Of a stretch of 64,000 bases of DNA, positions 16,841 through 57,372 are shown one piece after another (position 1 is the stretch's first letter; each line of letters begins with the position of its first letter). The stretch covers positions 13,498 through 77,497 of the forward strand of contig CAUERX010000002.1 in the NCBI GenBank assembly GCA_959020415.1. Direction: 5' to 3'. Both the position numbers and the translations under genes were made by a program. Under the pieces are notes generated by a model that was not told the DNA's origin, did no database searches, and saw only the letters and a list, made by a program, of their open reading frames with translations. The DNA comes from an uncultured bacterium (GTDB lineage Bacteria; Bacillota_I; Bacilli_A; RF39; UBA660).

Positions 16841-18829
16841 TTAATCTTTGCCTTCTTTTAAATTATCAATTAATTCTTCTTTAGTCATTTTACTGTAACC
16901 TTTTATTTTTTTCTCTTTAGCCATTTCTTCTAATTCTTCAATTGATAAATCAACCAAAGATGCTTCTTTAATTTCTTCTGCTTCAACATTTTCTGGCATA
17001 TGTCCATTTTCTACAAGGTAGTCAATTTGTTCTTTGGTAATGGTTTCATATTTTAATAATGATTGAGCAATTAATTCTAAGAGATCCATGTTATCTTTAA
17101 TAAGTTTTTTAGCAACTTCATATTGACCTAGGATAATCTTACGAACTTCTTCGTCCACTTCATTAGCCACAGCTGATGAGAAGTTTTGTTTTTTATTATA
17201 ATCCCTTCCAAGGAAGACATTTGATGATTCTTGACTTTCAAATTGAATTGGTCCTAAATCGCTCATTCCATATTCGGTAACCATGGCTCTAGCAACTTTG
17301 GTTGCTCTTTCGATATCATTGCTAGCGCCGCTTGTTTTTTCGTTAAATAATAACTCTTCTGCAACACGGCCACCTAATAATCCGGCTATTTCTTCTAGTA
17401 AGTCTTTCTTAGTAGCTAAAGCACGGTCTTCTTTTGGTAGCATCATGTTATAACCTAAGGCTGGCCCTCTTGGAATAATTGTTATTTTATGAACATCATT
17501 AGCACCATTTAATTTCAAGCCAATAATAGCATGCCCTGCTTCATGATAAGCCGTTATCTTAGCTTCATTATCACTAATTTTTCTAGTAACTTTTGCCGGT
17601 CCCATAAGAACACGATCTTGGGCTTCATCAATTTCATTCATAGTTATAGCATTTTTATTACGCCTTACTGCTAGCAATGCAGCTTCGTTTAATAAGTTTT
17701 CAAGATCTGCACCACTGAAACTTACAGTTCGTTTAGCAACGTTTTTCATTATTACGTCTTTAGCAAATGTTTTTCCTTTTGCGTGAACTTTTAAGATTTC
17801 TTCACGACCTTTTGCATCTGGTAAATTAACAGTAATTTGTCTGTCGAATCTTCCAGGTCTTAGTAAGGCAGGATCTAAAACATCTGGACGGTTAGTAGCA
17901 GCAATTATAATAATTCCTTCATTAACACCAAAACCATCCATTTCAGTTAATAATTGGTTTAATGTTTGTTCTCTTTCGTCGTGTCCACCACCTAAGCCGG
18001 CACCTCTTTGTCTTCCAACAGCATCAATTTCATCGATAAAGATTAAACATGGAGCATTTTGTTTAGCCTGTTTAAACATATCACGAACACGTGATGCTCC
18101 TACTCCGACAAATAATTCAACGAATTCCGAACCACTAATAAAGTAGAATGGGACATTAGCTTCACCAGCTACGGCTTTAGCAAGTAAAGTCTTACCTGTT
18201 CCTGGAGGACCAACTAGTAAAACACCTTTTGGTATTCTAGCGCCCATTTTTTGGAATTTCTTAGGGTTTTTTAAGAAGTCAATTAATTCTGATACTTCTT
18301 CTTTTTCTTCAGTAAGTCCAGCAACTTCTTCAAAGGTTACTTTTCCTTCTCCCGTTGTTAATCTTGCTTTACTCTTACCAAAGTCCATTGATTTGCTATT
18401 ACCACCCATTTGTCTAGTAATAAAGTAGAAACCTAATCCTATTAATAGTACCATTGGCAAAACGTTCATTATGAATAGTAATAAAGTGCTTGACTCTGGG
18501 TCAGTAGTGGTTGTCATTTTGAAACCATTTTTATCTTCGGCTTCCAATAGTTTTACCATTGTTTCATTCGTAAGTGGCATATTGAAAGTGAAGGTTTCAT
18601 TACTCTTATAATCTTTTAATTTACCACTGATAGTATAAATACTAGCACGGCTTCTTGGAGTAACATTTATTTCTTTTACCTGTTTATTTTCAACAGCATC
18701 AGTAAATTCACCATAAGTGATTTCGTGAACTTCTTTATTTAATGTACTAAAGATGATCATGATACCGAATAAGAAAATTAATAAAAACAGATAAGGTAAC
18801 AATCCTTTTTTCACAGTGTTTTTGTTCAT
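16841..18829 (-). CDS. ftsH: ATP-dependent zinc metalloprotease FtsH
   Basis: 662 aa; Walker [16 protein letters not shown] zinc motif, two N-terminal TM helices. Confidence 0.95.
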
Positions 18830-18847
18830 GACAAAACTCCCTTCTTT

Positions 18848-20200
18848 TTAGATATACTCCAATATTATATCATAGTTTTCGTCTTTTTGTTTATCAAATT
18901 TTGATTTTTTAAGTCCTGGAATCCAAAGTACGACTCCTTCGCTATCAACAAGGATAGGCCAGGTACGTCTTTCGATTGCTGGAATCTTTTCATCAATAAA
19001 AATATCTTTGATTTTTTTAGTACCATTTAAGCCCTTAATTTCAATCTTGTCACCATCTTCTTTATTCCTTATATAAAGAGGTAATTTTAAGTCTTTTGTA
19101 TTTAAACGACAAATATTGTTACTATTGTTGTTTGTTTCTTTAATTATTTTTATTGTTTTTTGGTTTGGTAAAGTTATAAAATCGAATAATTCTAATTTAT
19201 AATTTTCTTTTGGATTATTTTCTTTAATACTCAATTGATTATAACTTTTAACGACAGTTTTATTATTTGGTAAGTTGATTATTTGATTGGGTTTTTCACT
19301 AAAAATAAGTTCTTCAATAAGTTCAGTATGTTTATCAGTTATTAGCATCAAATCATCTTGATAAAACTTTTCTAAAATTTGATTAATGATTTTAAGTCTA
19401 ATAACTTGGTCAAGATTCTTAAATTTAGAAATATTTAAAACTTCATTTTGATAAACTTCATTTTGATGCTTATTTGCTTCCTTATTAATATAGTCATCAT
19501 ACATTTCTAAAGTTTTATTGAATTTATAAAATTTATGGTGAACATTTTTATCTTCATTTTTTAAAGGTGGCAATATATATTTTCGGAAACGATTTCTGGT
19601 ATATACATCTTTTTCGTTGGACTTATCCACAGCATAGGGTATTTTGTTTTCTTGAACATAGGATAATATCTCATCTTTAGTGTAAGTGATGAGTGGTCTT
19701 AAAATAGTATAATTTTCTTTTTGGGATTTTTCTGAAAATCCGGCATAGCCTTTAAGACTTGATCCTCTAACAATACGCATAAGAACTGTTTCCATTAAAT
19801 CATCACCATGATGGGCTGTCAAAAGGTGCTTAGCTTTACACTTGTTTACAATTTTTTCAAAAAAATTATATCTTTTAATTCGTGCATCATTATGAAAATT
19901 ATCGTCATTATAAGCATCAATGGTCATAAATTCGAAAAATATGTCTTTTTTTGTACAAAAATCTTTGACCATTACAGCTTCGGCTTCGCTTTCAATTCTA
20001 AGCTTATGATTTACATGAGCACAAACGACTTTTAAGTTTAATTCTGTTTTTAAGCTATTAACTAGGTGTAATAAAGCCATGGAATCTGGTCCACCTGAGG
20101 TGGCTACAACAACTGTTTCATTTTTCAAATTATTTCTTAATCTATCTAAGGCATCATTCATTATTGTCACCCCAATTGATTGGTTTAATACCATGTTCAA
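18848..20200 (-). CDS. tilS: tRNA(Ile)-lysidine synthetase (true start may be the internal Met at ~20161)
   Basis: PP-loop SGGPDSMAL; sits just after ftsH in transcription order. Confidence 0.8.
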   Translation of the reverse strand: MNMVLNQSIGVTIMNDALDRLRNNLKNETVVVATSGGPDSMALLHLVNSLKTELNLKVVCAHVNHKLRIESEAEAVMVKDFCTKKDIFFEFMTIDAYNDDNFHNDARIKRYNFFEKIVNKCKAKHLLTAHHGDDLMETVLMRIVRGSSLKGYAGFSEKSQKENYTILRPLITYTKDEILSYVQENKIPYAVDKSNEKDVYTRNRFRKYILPPLKNEDKNVHHKFYKFNKTLEMYDDYINKEANKHQNEVYQNEVLNISKFKNLDQVIRLKIINQILEKFYQDDLMLITDKHTELIEELIFSEKPNQIINLPNNKTVVKSYNQLSIKENNPKENYKLELFDFITLPNQKTIKIIKETNNNSNNICRLNTKDLKLPLYIRNKEDGDKIEIKGLNGTKKIKDIFIDEKIPAIERRTWPILVDSEGVVLWIPGLKKSKFDKQKDENYDIILEYI

Positions 20201-36589: not shown

Positions 36590-39500
36590 TTAATCCCTTT
36601 TTTTAATACTACTTTCTAATATTTTCATTAAATCAATTAAATAATAAATAAAATGTTTATCTAATTTAATAGTATCCAAGGTAATTATTAATCTTTCAAA
36701 TTTCATACTAAATCTAAACATACGGCTTAATTTGCTAGCCTCATAAAATAATGTTTCACCATTTATTTTTTTTGTTAATTCTTTATCTAAAGTAATTTCA
36801 ATAAAGTTTTTGGTTTGTCTTATTTGTTTTATACCAATTTTATTAGCTAATTTTTCAAACCATTCTTCATGCATATAAATTATCAGGTCTTCAGATACTT
36901 TTCCGAAACGATCTTCTAACTCATTTTTTACTTCGTTCAATTTATCATACGAGTTTATACTATTAATCTTTTTATGAATTTCTATTTTTAAATCTTCTTC
37001 TGATACGTAATTATCATCTATTGCTGTTTTTACTTCAATCAGTGGATTAGTACTTGTATCTTCTTCTTTATATACTTCTTTACCTTGAAGCTTTTGAACT
37101 GCTTCATTTAACATTTCTAAAAAAAGTTCAATACCAATGCTGTCAATAAATCCTGCTTGCTCACTACCTAAAATATCACCAGCGCCTCTTATTGATAAAT
37201 CACGCATAGCAATTGCAAATCCGCTGCCTAATTCGGTAAAATCTTTAATAACTTTTAATCGTTTAACGGCAATTTCTGATAGTAATTTCTTATTATCATA
37301 CATCAAATAACAATAAGCTATTTTATTGCTACGGCCAATACGCCCTCTAATTTGGTACAATTGCGACAATCCAAAACGGTCAGCATCAATAATAATTAAC
37401 GTATTAACGGTTGGTATATCAATACCAGTTTCAATAATTGTCGTGCAGAGTAAAACATCAAATTCATGATTATTAAATCTAAACATAACATCTTCTAATT
37501 CATTTTTTGTCATTTGACCATGAGCTATTTCTATTTTTACATCAGGGATTAAGGCTTGTAACTCGCTTAACTTTGTATTCATATTTTTAATTTGATTAAA
37601 TAAAATGAACGTCTGCCCATTTCGCGCTAATTCCTTATACACTGCTTCTTTGATTATTTGGTTATTTTCAGCAAGGACGTAAGTTTGAATTGGATATCGA
37701 TCGACTGGTGGAGTTTCAAGCATTGATAAACTACGAATTCCGGCCATTGACATTTGAAGGGTTCTTGGAATTGGGGTTGCTGACAAGGTTAAAACATCTA
37801 CATTATTTTTGTATTGTTTTATTTTTTCCTTATGTTTAACACCAAATCTTTGCTCTTCATCAATAACTAGCAATCCTAAATCTTTGAATTTAACATCTTC
37901 ACTTAATAGACGATGCGTTCCAATTAATAAATCGATTTTGCCTTCTACTAATTTTTCTAAAATTTCTTTAATTTTTTTTGAACTAACAAAACGATTTAAA
38001 ATTTCAATATTAATAGGAAATGACTTGAATCTCTGAAGCGCATTTTTATAATGTTGTGATGAAAGAATCGTGGTTGGACATAGCATAGCAGCTTGCTTTC
38101 CAGATAAAATACATTTGAATATAGCGCGAAAAGCGACTTCTGTTTTTCCATAACCAACGTCACCACATAAGAGTCGATCCATTGGTCTAGGTTTTTCCAT
38201 GTCTTGTTTTATTTCTTCAGTAACTCTTATTTGATCGGCTGTTTCTGTATGTTCAAATTCTTTTTCGAAATCTATTTGTTCATCAGAATCTTTTACGAAA
38301 GCATATCCCTCTTTAGATTCTCTAATAGCATATAGTTCTAGTAATTCTTCTGCCATGTCTTCAGCACGTTTACGAGCTTTAGCTTTGGTTTTTTCCCATT
38401 CATGACTACCAAGTTTATTTAGTTTGGGTTCACTGCCATCTTTGCCAGAATATTTAGTAATTAAATCTAATTTTTCCACAGGAATATATAGCTTATCATT
38501 GTTTTTATATTCAATTGTTAAATAATCTTTGTTAAGACCATTTTTAGGCATAGTTCTAATTCCTAAATATCTACCAATTCCATGGGCGCCATGAACAACG
38601 TAGTCACCTATTTCTAATTTGGTAATATCTTTAATACGACTTCCATAACGAAATTTTGTTTTATAATTATTCTCTTCATTTTGATTGAATAATTCTCTTG
38701 GCGTGATTACAACATATTTATCGGTTTCAAATCCACTAGTTAGTTTTTTTACAATTAGATTTAATTTCCCGGGAAATAATTCTTGTTCGTTTGTATAGAT
38801 TAATTTAGGATTTTCTAAATTATCTATTAACTTATTAACTTGATAACGATTATCTAAGCAAATTATAACGTTTTTCTTTGATTTTAAATATACAGTTAAA
38901 CGATCATTAATATCCTTCGGAGTTTTTGAAAATGGTTCGATATCAAAAGTTTTATAACTTTGAATATTTTTAATATTATGATGATAATTTTCAAAAGTTT
39001 CAAATATTAACGGTTTCGATGCCTTAATATCTCCAAAATCATGCATATACTTTGTATCTTTTTCACGGTTAGCACTAATATTATAATTGGTTATTTCCTC
39101 TTGTAATAATTTATAGTTAGTTAGTAAATTATGATAATTATCATATACCGTTATTGGCTCATTCATATAACCTTCAATATTGGATACTTTTGTATATTTG
39201 TACATATCGCGATACGGAACCTCAAAAATATCTTTATCAATCAAAAACTCAGTATTTGGATAAATTGTTATTTCGCTTATGTTTTCATTTGTTCTTTGGG
39301 TATCAACATTAAAGGTTTTTAGTGAATCAATAGTGTCACCCCAAAATTCAATTCTTATGGGATCTGAATTGTTTAGTGGAAATACATCAAGGACAAAACC
39401 ACGAACGGCTATTTCACCGGTCATGTTAACAGTAGTCTCTCTTTTGTAACCAAGTTTATAGAACTTTTCAATCAATTTTTCGATTTTATAATCGCTGCCT

Positions 39501-47167: not shown

Positions 47168-47184
47168 TTTATCACCTAAATAAA

Positions 47185-47259
47185 AGGTACACACGTTTAG
47201 TGACCCTTAAGGCTGCTGTCTTCCGACTCTGACCTGGTTCAGATATAAACGTTGTACCT
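47185..47259 (-). ncRNA. ffs: small (4.5S-type) signal recognition particle RNA
   Basis: minus-strand read AGGUACAACGUUUAUAUCUGAACCAGGUCAGAGUCGGAAGACAGCAGCCUUAAGGGUCACUAAACGUGUGUACCU; domain IV motif matches E. coli CCAGGUCAGGUCCGGAAGGAAGCAGCC; 14-bp closing helix; tadA-adjacent as B. subtilis scr. Confidence 0.8.
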
Positions 47260-47395
47260 AAATAATAATATAATATTTTAATAAAAAAAGCAACTGTAAT
47301 AATGTTTTATATGAAATATTATTTATATTTGTATATTTTGGTGATTAAAGTGAGTTTTTGTGGATTTAGTCGGGCTAAAAAATAACATATCTCAA

Positions 47396-47411
47396 GGTTT
47401 CACGTGAAACA
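47396..47411. promoter_or_regulatory. parS: parS site 1 (GGTTTCACGTGAAACA, 15/16 to TGTTNCACGTGAAACA)
   Basis: match to the B. subtilis ParB/Spo0J parS consensus. Confidence 0.7.
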
Positions 47412-47555
47412 TAGTTCAATCGTAATAAAACATAAATATGAATGTTAACAGTTTTTATTTATTCCGGCAAAGCTTATTCTATCATTTGGTAACGATATTT
47501 TCGTTACATTACGAAGATTATCCACATTTTTTATTATTTGAGTTAGTTTGTTTTA

Positions 47556-47571
47556 TGTTTCACGTGAAACA
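47556..47571. promoter_or_regulatory. parS: parS site 2 (TGTTTCACGTGAAACA, perfect palindrome)
   Basis: 16/16 to TGTTNCACGTGAAACA. Confidence 0.8.
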
Positions 47572-47845
47572 TTATATGTTTTTTTCTATTTTTTGATAGA
47601 TTATTTACTTAAAAAATATAAGATTGGAACTTTATTTTCTGAAAACAAAATATAATTTAAAGATGGTTTCACACAAAACATAAAATGATTTTAAATAAAA
47701 AATGTAAATTGCATAATACTTACACTACAGTTGTTAAAAATTTTCTTAAACTAATTTTGTTAAAACAGTCGCTCTCTTTCCCACACTTTTTTTTATTAAA
47801 AATACAGTTTTAAGTATTTAATTAGTTTAAAAGAGCTCCATATAA

Positions 47846-47861
47846 TGTTTCACGTGAAACA
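47846..47861. promoter_or_regulatory. parS: parS site 3 (TGTTTCACGTGAAACA, perfect)
   Basis: 16/16. Confidence 0.8.
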
Positions 47862-47942
47862 TTATAAATAGCAAATAACCGTATAGTCTATTTTCTATAC
47901 TTTCCGATGATTTTGGTGATTTATTAAATACTATATCTTAGA

Positions 47943-47958
47943 TGTTTCACGTGAAACT
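47943..47958. promoter_or_regulatory. parS: parS site 4 (TGTTTCACGTGAAACT, 15/16)
   Basis: one terminal mismatch. Confidence 0.7.
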
Positions 47959-47985
47959 ATAAACTATATAATTTTTGTACGTCAA

Positions 47986-48001
47986 TGTTTCACGTGAAAC
48001 A
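47986..48001. promoter_or_regulatory. parS: parS site 5 (TGTTTCACGTGAAACA, perfect)
   Basis: 16/16. Confidence 0.8.
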
Positions 48002-48034
48002 TAGCTGTAATTTTATCAGGTAAAAAAGATATAC

Positions 48035-53672: not shown

Positions 53673-54131
53673 TTATTTTTGGTTCTTTTGGCGATTTCGT
53701 AAAATTAGTAATAATTTGGTTGATCTAAATATTTGACTTTCAAAGGCATCAAAAGATAATGGAAACATTCTTTCTTCGCCACCGCTAAATTTTACTAAAA
53801 CATTATTATCAACGCCTTCATACGAACTAATATGCTTAATAGCTATCCAGCAGCAGTCATCTAATAATGGTGACATAGTTGGAAAAAATATTAATTCATT
53901 ACTTCCCTCTACGATTATCGGTAGTTTATAACACATTCCTAATAGTTTTTTGCTACCTTTGGTCCGACCTTCTAAAGTGCTGCCATAGTATTCACAACTT
54001 TCTCTTAAAATTTTAGATACTGATTTATTTACTACAAAATGTCTCCTTTCCTCTATTATTTCTGTTTTAGAGCCTTCTTTAGCTATTAAAGCACAAGTAG
54101 CATTAGTTATCTCATAGAAGTCTTCTTTCAC
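53673..54131 (-). CDS. comK: ComK-family competence transcription factor homologue
   Basis: aligns by eye with B. subtilis ComK: YEITNATCALIA/YEVNGATIAVLP, ELIFFPTMSP/QIFLFPTLSS, CCWIAIKHI/CGWISHVHV, SFDAFESQIFRS/SYNSFENQVYRT. Confidence 0.65.
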   Translation of the reverse strand: MKEDFYEITNATCALIAKEGSKTEIIEERRHFVVNKSVSKILRESCEYYGSTLEGRTKGSKKLLGMCYKLPIIVEGSNELIFFPTMSPLLDDCCWIAIKHISSYEGVDNNVLVKFSGGEERMFPLSFDAFESQIFRSTKLLLILRNRQKNQK

Positions 54132-55463: not shown

Positions 55464-55546
55464 GTGGATTGTGTGGAAAAGTGATTTTTTCCTTGTTAAT
55501 TATAACTTAAATTGGATATTATGGCTTGTTCAAAAGCTGTGGATTA
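55464..55546. promoter_or_regulatory. oriC part 2: DnaA-box cluster between dnaA and dnaN, next to an AT-rich unwinding region (55411-55460)
   Basis: TGTGGATTG (55464-55472), TGTGGAAAA (55472-55480), TGTGGATTA (55538-55546); these are reverse-complements of TTATCCACA-type boxes. Confidence 0.65.
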
Positions 55547-55563: not shown

Positions 55564-56913
55564 CTATCTTATTTGAGCAACAATTTTTGTGATTTCATCT
55601 TCAAGATTTTTATCTTTAGTAAGTTCTCTTTTTATTTTATCAACGGAATGCATTACTGTAGTATGGTCTTTTCCACCAAATTCACTACCAATCTTTGGTA
55701 ATGATTCTTTTAAATATATTCGGCAAATATACATTCCGATTTGTCTTGGAACGGCAATTTTAGAAAGTCTTTTCTTTCCTTTAATATCTTCTGGAGTTAT
55801 ATTATAGTTTTTTGCTACTATTTGAATTACTTTATCAATTTTATTTTTTGAAATAATAGCTTTCCCAATATAATCTTTTAAAGCTTCAATTGCTAAATCG
55901 ATGGTGATTTCAGAGCCATTCATAATAGTTGCATACGCAAATACTCTAGTAAGGGCTCCTTCTAGTTTTCTTATATCAGTGGTACAATTACTTGCTATAT
56001 ATTCTTTAACTTCCTCTGGAACATAGCTACTGATTCCTTGGGCTTCTATTTTTTTATCAAGAATTGCCATACGAAGTTCAAAATCTGGTGGCAGGATGTC
56101 AATAGTTAATCCCCAATTGAATCTTGTTCTTAAACGATCTTCTAGTTTTTTTAGATCGTCTGGAGATCTATCCGATGAAATAATTATTTGTTTATTTTTT
56201 GTGTGTAGTTCATTAAAGGTGTTGAAAAATTCTTGCTGCGTTTTATTAGCTATTTCTAAGTATTGAATATCATCAATCATAAGGACGTCGATGTCACGAT
56301 ATTTACGTTTAAAATTATCCACAGCTTTAAAATTGTTATCGTTTTTTCGATACAAACTTAAAAAATCATCAACGAATTTTTCACTGGTTACATAACGGAC
56401 TTTTTTATTAGAATTTGAGGTTATATAATTCCCAATTGCGTGCATTAAGTGAGTTTTGCCAAGGCCACTACTTCCGTAGATGAATAACGGATTATACATA
56501 CTTCCTGGTCTTTCGGCTACTGCTACTCCTATTGCTTTAGCAAATTTATTGCTTTCGCCGGAAATAAAATTTTCAAATGTGTATTTGTTATCTAATCCAC
56601 TTTCGAAAATAGCATCATCATTTTCTTTTATAATAGCAATTCTATCATTTTCTTCAGTGTGTTCTCCTACTGTTACATATTCAAAGTTAAAGATGGAACC
56701 GGTGACTTCCATAAATGTTTCTTTAATAATGTCACTGTAGTTTTCTTTTAGATGTTTTTTATGAACGTCTAGTGGAACTTCAACTAAAGCAATTTCTTCA
56801 TTTAATTTAATAAGCCGAGTGTCTTTAAACCACGTTTGAAATAAAACTGGTTTTACTTTCATTTCAATTTTTTCTAAAAAGACACTCCAGATATTTTCTA
56901 AATCCATAAACAT
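55564..56913 (-). CDS. dnaA: chromosomal replication initiator DnaA
   Basis: 449 aa; AAA+ GSSGLGKTHL; C-terminal domain IV DNA-binding HTH. Confidence 0.95.
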   Translation of the reverse strand: MFMDLENIWSVFLEKIEMKVKPVLFQTWFKDTRLIKLNEEIALVEVPLDVHKKHLKENYSDIIKETFMEVTGSIFNFEYVTVGEHTEENDRIAIIKENDDAIFESGLDNKYTFENFISGESNKFAKAIGVAVAERPGSMYNPLFIYGSSGLGKTHLMHAIGNYITSNSNKKVRYVTSEKFVDDFLSLYRKNDNNFKAVDNFKRKYRDIDVLMIDDIQYLEIANKTQQEFFNTFNELHTKNKQIIISSDRSPDDLKKLEDRLRTRFNWGLTIDILPPDFELRMAILDKKIEAQGISSYVPEEVKEYIASNCTTDIRKLEGALTRVFAYATIMNGSEITIDLAIEALKDYIGKAIISKNKIDKVIQIVAKNYNITPEDIKGKKRLSKIAVPRQIGMYICRIYLKESLPKIGSEFGGKDHTTVMHSVDKIKRELTKDKNLEDEITKIVAQIR

Positions 56914-56977: not shown

Positions 56978-57212
56978 TGTGGAAAAAGTAGAAAAAAAGA
57001 TATCCACACACTTATAAAGTCGATATTTGGTGAAAACTGTCGTTTTTCCACAGAAAATGTGAAAAAGTTAATTATCAACATTGTTAATTATTTTGAAGTA
57101 TTTCACATATGTTGAAATGAAGAGAAATCCCTGAAATTTAAAAATAAATTATGGTGGATAAGTAATGTGGTAAATCTCTTTTATTGTTTTTAATATTTTT
57201 ACTTGTGGAAAA
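56978..57212. promoter_or_regulatory. oriC part 1: DnaA-box cluster upstream of dnaA, in the divergent dnaA/rpmH intergenic region
   Basis: TGTGGAAAA 56978-56986, ATATCCACA 57000-57008, TTTTCCACA 57044-57052, TTATCAACA 57072-57080, GGTGGATAA 57153-57161, TGTGGTAAA 57165-57173, TGTGGAAAA ~57204-57212. Confidence 0.7.
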
Positions 57213-57372
57213 AAAGTAGGGTATTTTATTGTTTTTGAAATAAAATCTTTATTAAAACTATTTTAATTTTGTTTTTGATATTAAATTTTAGAAAAAATGT
57301 GGCTAATTAGCATATTTTTATAATGGTAGTACCAAAATACTAAGTAAAAAAAGGGTAGTTAGGAAAAAAACG

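Follow-up and report, generated by a model that had tools for sequence, protein, structure and literature searches.

The spacer between gyrA and the small SRP RNA gene (ffs) in the 64-kb window, i.e., in the whole stretch of 64,000 nucleotides analysed, probably serves the chromosome as a dedicated, centromere-like locus in which sites for ParB nucleation (parS) are clustered, about 9 kb from oriC; the probability of this reading was estimated at roughly 0.72. The spacer contains five intact parS sites, three of them perfect copies of the 16-bp palindrome TGTTTCACGTGAAACA and two with one mismatch at the outermost base, all at the positions reported in the first-pass annotation. The features of the array, its borders, and the adjacent origin are as follows:

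47171..47268, minus strand: small SRP RNA gene (ffs), bordering the array on its downstream side (Rfam RF00169, 63.6 bits)
47269..48034, no strand: gene-free spacer of 766 bp holding the parS array, from the gyrA stop codon to the 5' end of the SRP RNA
47303..47318, no strand: decayed parS TGTTTTATATGAAATA, four transitions from the consensus (repeat family D2), intact TGTTTCACGTGAAACA in the sister strain L001
47396..47411, no strand: parS GGTTTCACGTGAAACA, one mismatch at the outermost base, kept in L001
47556..47571, no strand: parS, perfect 16-bp palindrome, kept in L001
47665..47680, no strand: decayed parS GGTTTCACACAAAACA (repeat family D1), intact in L001 at the aligned position
47846..47861, no strand: parS, perfect, within the 26-bp palindrome TATAATGTTTCACGTGAAACATTATA (inverted repeat I19)
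47943..47958, no strand: parS TGTTTCACGTGAAACT, one mismatch at the outermost base, kept in L001
47986..48001, no strand: parS, perfect, 34 bp from the gyrA stop codon, kept in L001
48035..50500, minus strand: gyrA, upstream border of the array (Pfam DNA_topoisoIV, 3e-164, and GyrA C-terminal repeats)
55564-56913: dnaA (Pfam)
56978..57306, no strand: DnaA-box cluster (oriC), upstream of dnaA (box search; GC-skew minimum)

The five intact sites span 47396-48001, i.e., five sites in 606 bp, with spacings of 160, 290, 97, and 43 bp. Beyond these five, no match to TGTTTCACGTGAAACA was present in the 64-kb window, even with three mismatches; in shuffled sequences, a mean of 0.27 matches with up to three mismatches was expected, and none of the 100 shuffles reached five. 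The sites conform to the 16-bp palindrome TGTTNCACGTGAAACA of chromosomal parS, and each of their half-sites has the G at position 2 and the A at position 7 that mark parS as opposed to NBS; the proposed match to the ParB/Spo0J consensus is exact. Two more, degenerate copies were found by a repeat search (47303-47318 and 47665-47680), which also showed the DNA between the sites to be unrelated, the 16-18-bp palindromes being all that the sites have in common. The unequal spacings and unrelated spacers indicate that the sites are clustered and are not the repeat of a fixed unit, so that "tandem", the word first used for them, is too loose for the window. The region had also been described as free of ORFs between gyrA and the SRP RNA gene, and this holds: the longest ORF in the spacer has 52 aa and is not preserved in the sister strain, where 1-nt indels disrupt it, and both flanks were confirmed by Pfam and Rfam.

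On the minus strand, the genes run dnaA-dnaN-(ComK-like)-recF-gyrB-gyrA-array-ffs-tadA-dnaX-ybaB-recR. Mobile-element genes were absent from the window according to Pfam, and the synteny with a Bacillus-type origin region was intact. The DnaA-box cluster and the cumulative GC-skew minimum, found at ~54-56 kb of the window, place oriC at ~56.9-57.3 kb, about 9 kb from the array, and the distance claimed in the first-pass annotation is borne out by the box cluster, the dnaA gene, and the GC skew together. Further DnaA boxes were located at 55472-55546. The spacer itself has one perfect DnaA box, TTATCCACA (47518-47526), which is kept in the sister strain L001; the spacer was considered as a DnaA-box region and rejected as such, this single box (47518) having no cluster around it.

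The turnover of the sites was followed in L001, whose GyrA is 98% identical to that of the window and whose spacer is 92% identical, with indels of 7, 24, and 49 nt. The L001 spacer contains seven sites, five of which align with the intact five of the window; the other two align with the degenerate copies, from which they differ by 3-4 substitutions each. Since the copies that are degenerate in the window are intact in L001, the ancestral array had seven sites. The conservation of the sites while the spacers diverge indicates that the sites are selected as protein-binding sites. Judged from the sequences, the turnover pattern is that of a selected binding-site array and not that of a coding region or a dispersed mobile repeat. 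The array evolves by birth and death, in which tandem duplication of 26-140 bp units makes sites, point mutation kills them, and selection retains several intact ones in the gyrA-ffs spacer.

In total, 80 species-level loci were obtained by a GyrA search of the genome collection at 73-98% identity. They belong to uncultured gut "Bacilli/Tenericutes" MAGs, including Candidatus Onthousia and Candidatus Faecimonas, and two of them are complete chromosomes of 1.34 and 1.49 Mb. Using the pattern TGTTYCACGTGRAACA with at most one mismatch, 1-12 parS were found in 79 of the 80 loci, starting 9-711 bp past the end of the gyrA match, and both the position and the sequence of parS downstream of gyrA are kept in these 79 species, which speaks strongly for a selected array of ParB-type binding sites with a role as centromere or condensin loader. 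Among the loci with more than 1.5 kb beyond the last site (n = 62), the median was four sites and the maximum twelve, although array copy numbers in short-read MAGs may be collapsed. Of the ten relatives checked, nine have the ffs gene directly after the array and one, L063, has it within the array. A logo built from 372 sites gives an 18-bp palindrome, A-TGTTYCACGTGRAACA-T, whose core positions hardly vary; the sole variable core position is the N of the known parS consensus, and the "two-mismatch" variants of some species represent the other perfect palindrome, TGTTCCACGTGGAACA.

The sites were confined to this place. No parS was detected in 627 kb of upstream sequence and gyrA of the same loci, or in 80 metagenome contigs of relatives that were retrieved with a partial MnmG query and cover 1.09 Mb around oriC/mnmG. 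A dispersed repeat family, the outcome by which the first-pass annotation would have fallen, is thus contradicted by the lack of sites in ~1.7 Mb of other origin-region DNA of the relatives. Nor was any parS found near the par genes of any relative examined. In some relatives, the array consists of regular tandem units of 26, 28, 37-39, 74, 79-85, 95, 106-107, 126, or 140 bp, and in others it is irregular, as in the window; the densest arrays reach seven sites in ~250 bp. In 18 of the 80 loci, the contig stops less than 150 nt from the last site, i.e., within the array, which points to assembly breaks in a repeat; the breaking of short-read assemblies is a minor consequence for metagenomics. 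The complete-chromosome assembly L009, accession OZ007025.1, has six perfect sites, so multi-copy arrays are independent of fragmented assemblies.

The number and length of these arrays also bear on a different role of the palindromes, as operators of an unrelated CACGTG-binding factor controlling ffs or gyrA read-through. In the relatives, the closest site upstream of ffs is ~35-170 bp away from the start of the RNA, and the region must also hold the ffs promoter, as this explanation would have it. However, all 16-18 positions match parS, and not the CACGTG core alone; up to 12 copies over 1.7 kb are unlike an operator architecture; and a promoter and terminator scan of the spacer yielded nothing exceeding the shuffle level, promoter-like matches being no commoner than in shuffles. 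Control by such a factor is, accordingly, extremely unlikely.

In the F plasmid centromere sopC, a 43-bp unit is repeated 12 times in tandem, and every unit includes a 16-bp inverted repeat to which SopB binds. Comparable head-to-tail units with one palindrome each were observed in L003, L010, and L035 (~37-39 bp), L029 (74 bp), and L018 (126 bp); such fixed units occur in some relatives only and are absent from the window, where the spacing is irregular. In contrast to sopC, the array is chromosomal, has the chromosomal parS sequence, and is not beside a parAB operon: its flanks are gyrA and ffs, and the window, free of ParA and ParB, does not encode a parA-parB operon of its own as a plasmid centromere would. 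Tight clusters of canonical parS were also sought in IMG/VR as two sites 10-40 bp apart. At least 120 contigs classed as viral, with a GC content of 29-65%, carried them (loci L178-L297, e.g., L187:2833-2938, L236:923-1040, L246:7102-7224, and L235); the number of sites per contig was 2-9, and many of the sites followed one another at intervals of 24-55 bp. In the fetched DNA of the 120 IMG/VR matches listed, a ParB-like gene was present in one and a ParA-like gene in none. These contigs are possibly mobile elements using the host ParB or misclassified chromosomal fragments.

Tight parS clusters on so many IMG/VR contigs, the clear tandem amplification of short units in the relatives, and the decay of two sites in the window are what would be expected if the array had no function today and were either a neutral or selfish tandem expansion or the remains of a plasmid or phage centromere that had integrated. 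This origin is nevertheless very unlikely, given that the window spacers are unrelated and share the palindromes alone, that intact sites persist in 79 of 80 species with GyrA identity down to 73%, that the Bacillus-type synteny is undisturbed by mobile-element genes, and that no PLSDB plasmid matches or resembles the region.

The search for the protein that would bind the array was extended to the other side of the origin. No ParB or ParA gene was detected in the 64-kb window by tblastn with Soj, Spo0J, and Noc N-domain queries. The window ends inside mnmG, and its continuation was read from the metagenome contig L081, whose MnmG is 98% identical to that of the window and whose DNA identity is 94% over 10 kb. 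The genes of L081 are ordered as rsmG, a gene for an unknown 304-aa protein, a gene for a 551-aa ParB-family protein, a CarD-like gene, merR, and uvrB. The first-pass annotation had expected parA/parB just past mnmG-rsmG; instead, L081 has only the 551-aa Noc-type paralogue there, without ParA or a Spo0J-type ParB:

L081:13673-15328: 551-aa Noc-type ParB-family gene of the sister strain, shortly past the right-hand end of the window

The encoded protein comprises ParB_N and HTH_ParB domains, a ~300-aa P/Q/T/S-rich linker, and a short C-terminal domain. Among solved structures, Noc 7NG0 (8e-61) ranked ahead of Spo0J 6SDK (8e-49); against the NCBIfam Noc model TIGR04285, the protein scored 274 bits, the cut-off being 315. 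Only 15 aa separate the start of its ORF from the ILPNRFQPR motif, too few for the N-terminal membrane helix of Noc. Whether parS or NBS is bound is decided by R173/G201 versus Q173/R201, K at 179 or 184 being permissive (Jalal et al., PMC7383237), and parS-specific variants always retained R173 experimentally (PMC7383237). The L081 protein has Q173, K179, N184, and R201. The same Q-K-x-R signature was present in all noc-position proteins with a readable HTH from more than 60 related loci (L082-L160 and L172 among them), of which 43 were read by pattern match and the others by eye; residue 184 is N, K, T, or S. Complete ORFs at this position encode 377-867 aa, the range being due to the variable low-complexity P/Q/T/S-rich linker.

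Neither soj nor spo0J was found within ~8-10 kb of the noc-like gene in L081 and the more than 60 relatives, and no Spo0J-type ParB was detected in the loci of the window's clade by tblastn, homologue, and gene-context searches. The homologue searches retrieved Soj and Spo0J only from two outgroup clades or from unrelated bacteria. A paper on the gene content of RF39/RFN20 makes no mention of spo0J, soj, or noc. The two neighbouring clades, part of the same radiation and both outgroups to the window's clade by FtsH, TilS, and MnmE identity, encode Soj and a ~300-aa Spo0J-type ParB with R173, G201, and the N-terminal motif RRALGRGLEELF, which is the ParA-interaction motif. In the first of them, the order is rsmG-noc-soj-spo0J-...-ychF-rpsF, and in the second, it is rRNA-RF-yitT-tilS-ftsH-soj-spo0J-mscS-DUF951-...-ychF; in L168, L170, and L173, soj-spo0J directly follows ftsH downstream of the rRNA operon. 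In the window's clade, the place usually taken by the ancestral soj-spo0J-mscS-DUF951-ABGT-ychF block is occupied instead by uvrB-yvlD-lgt-trxB-whiA-rplI-dnaB or tilS-ftsH-S10. A location of soj-spo0J after ftsH in the relatives of L097 was considered and rejected, as the S10 operon comes after ftsH in L172. One relative, L094, has an additional, divergent parA-parB pair ~2 kb downstream of its noc-like gene (L094:16227-17949); the pair has 41% identity to the Soj of L161 and ~30-38% to the Spo0J/Noc-domain queries and is probably of plasmid or ICE type.

This gene content raises the question of whether the array is bound by the long Noc-type paralogue after rsmG, with its ParB N-domain, HTH, low-complexity linker of ~200-600 aa, and short C-terminal domain, the clade having lost soj-spo0J and Noc having taken over or sharing centromere binding. 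It is the sole ParB-family gene in ~85 kb around the origin of the lineage and in the more than 60 related loci, the ancestral soj-spo0J block has been replaced at its usual place, and the protein is atypical for Noc in its missing space for a membrane helix and its low TIGR04285 score. However, its DNA-contact residues Q173, K179, and R201 are those of NBS-specific Noc and lack the R173 that parS-specific variants always keep, and the same HTH occurs in clades that also have Spo0J, with no sign of a specificity shift. Binding of the array by this paralogue is on balance unlikely.

The distribution of NBS bears on the same question. In the NBS palindrome TATTTCCCGGGAAATA, positions 2 and 7 of each half-site are A and C, respectively, and none of the window array sites has this form. 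In terms of the Noc-NBS system, the neighbouring ParB-family gene has Noc-type residues and the window sites are parS. Outside the array, the window has a single perfect NBS core:

38764..38777, no strand: perfect NBS core ATTTCCCGGGAAAT inside the mfd ORF (mfd by Pfam), 0.02 expected

NBS are rare near the origin in the closest relatives of the window, which fits a Noc-type protein engaged at parS. Against this, perfect or near-perfect NBS lie just upstream of the noc-like gene in many relatives (L096:12609, L095:12585, and L122:12613). NBS are usually scattered around the chromosome and are not co-clustered with parS. In 23 of the 80 relatives, perfect TATTTCCCGGGAAATA sites are interleaved with parS in the array downstream of gyrA, often 25-70 bp from a parS (e.g., L045:3816-6375, L064:9090-9735, L063:8518-10930, and L019:8469-8767), and in the related loci, 38 NBS occur within arrays versus 18 elsewhere. 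We know of no description of such composite parS and NBS arrays. Hybrids of parS and NBS were essentially absent among ~430 sites, although a binder of dual specificity should tolerate them; two discrete site classes without hybrids point to two separate binders.

Taken as a whole, loss of soj-spo0J from this clade of gut Bacilli with reduced genomes, with the expanded parS array serviced by the Noc-type paralogue or by another, unrecognised protein, appears improbable. If it were true, the centromere-binding function would have re-evolved from Noc, and the mixed arrays would be composite loading platforms for two ParB-family clamps. A parS-specific ParB encoded elsewhere in this genome is more likely than loss, as suggested by the strict conservation and expansion of parS, by the two discrete site classes, and by the Noc-type HTH, which is unchanged whether Spo0J is encoded next to it or not.

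If it worked as the characterised ParB-parS systems do, the array would be a place of ParB binding and SMC loading. Each 16-18-bp palindrome would be a loading site for dimers of a parS-specific ParB/Spo0J-type CTPase, which would then form closed, CTP-bound clamps and slide to the flanking DNA; adjacent loading sites would raise the loading rate and the local ParB concentration. The resulting partition complex would recruit SMC-ScpAB to the origin region and, if ParA exists, would also be segregated by it. The models for this mechanism are described in PMC7333895 and PMC7022226. Of the dedicated centromere and condensin platform put forward in the first-pass annotation, the parS match, the origin-proximal location, and the conservation in 79 of 80 species stood, whereas a cognate ParB was not found in the DNA examined.

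Sites of B. subtilis parS are dispersed over the origin region, mostly within genes, with one inside spo0J. The window array shares with the B. subtilis Spo0J/ParB-parS system the 16-bp consensus, the origin-proximal location, and the expected role in ParB nucleation and SMC loading; unlike in B. subtilis, all detectable sites are in one gene-free spacer of ≤0.8 kb, and the local par locus is without soj and spo0J. Clustered parS occur in Caulobacter (a cluster of seven) and Myxococcus, and redundant parS presumably lend robustness to the partition complex. Streptococcus pneumoniae and Staphylococcus aureus have ParB-parS-SMC systems without ParA. For Pseudomonas, a cluster of four parS (P. 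aeruginosa parS1-4) is described (PMC4368675, PMC7022226), and a parS cluster is reported for Corynebacterium (C. glutamicum; PMC7083940). Streptomyces and Listeria have 20-23 parS near the origin (PMC7022226, PMC7333895, PMC7083940), and the copy number of parS ranges from 1 to >20 (PMC7333895). The contrast originally drawn with most chromosomes was therefore too strong, clustered chromosomal parS being already known and the IMG/VR contigs carrying clusters as well; dense parS clusters as such are not new.

Like other clustered chromosomal parS, the sites here are grouped near oriC and vary in copy number between species; compared with them, they are denser, fill a non-coding spacer of their own whose syntenic position is fixed, and often form tandemly amplified units. 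The particular features of this clade are the fixed gene-free syntenic position, the plasmid-like density, the amplification of tandem units, the par genes without nearby parS, and the odd par locus. If confirmed, the spacer would provide a clear-cut case, from nature, of a chromosomal centromere that is non-coding and dedicated to this role. The number of sites shifts fast between close relatives (5, 7, 9, and 12 copies) while their position is fixed. Why the parS number varies, why the sites are clustered, and what drives clustering over evolution are listed as open questions in a review (PMC7333895), and the clade offers ~80 independent "experiments" on parS number and clustering in genomes of 1.3-1.5 Mb. 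The larger question is that of a strongly selected parS array versus a local par locus with only a Noc-type protein.

Two further observations concern the origin region. A ComK-family ORF of 152 aa (53673-54131, minus strand; Pfam ComK, 9e-35) is located between dnaN and recF, an unusual position for a competence regulator, in a genome of ~1.4 Mb. The tilS-ftsH-S10 block is on the gyrA side of oriC in the window (16841-20200) and directly after rsmG-noc, on the other side of oriC, in some relatives (L172 and L097); its presence on opposite sides points to origin-spanning rearrangements within the clade.
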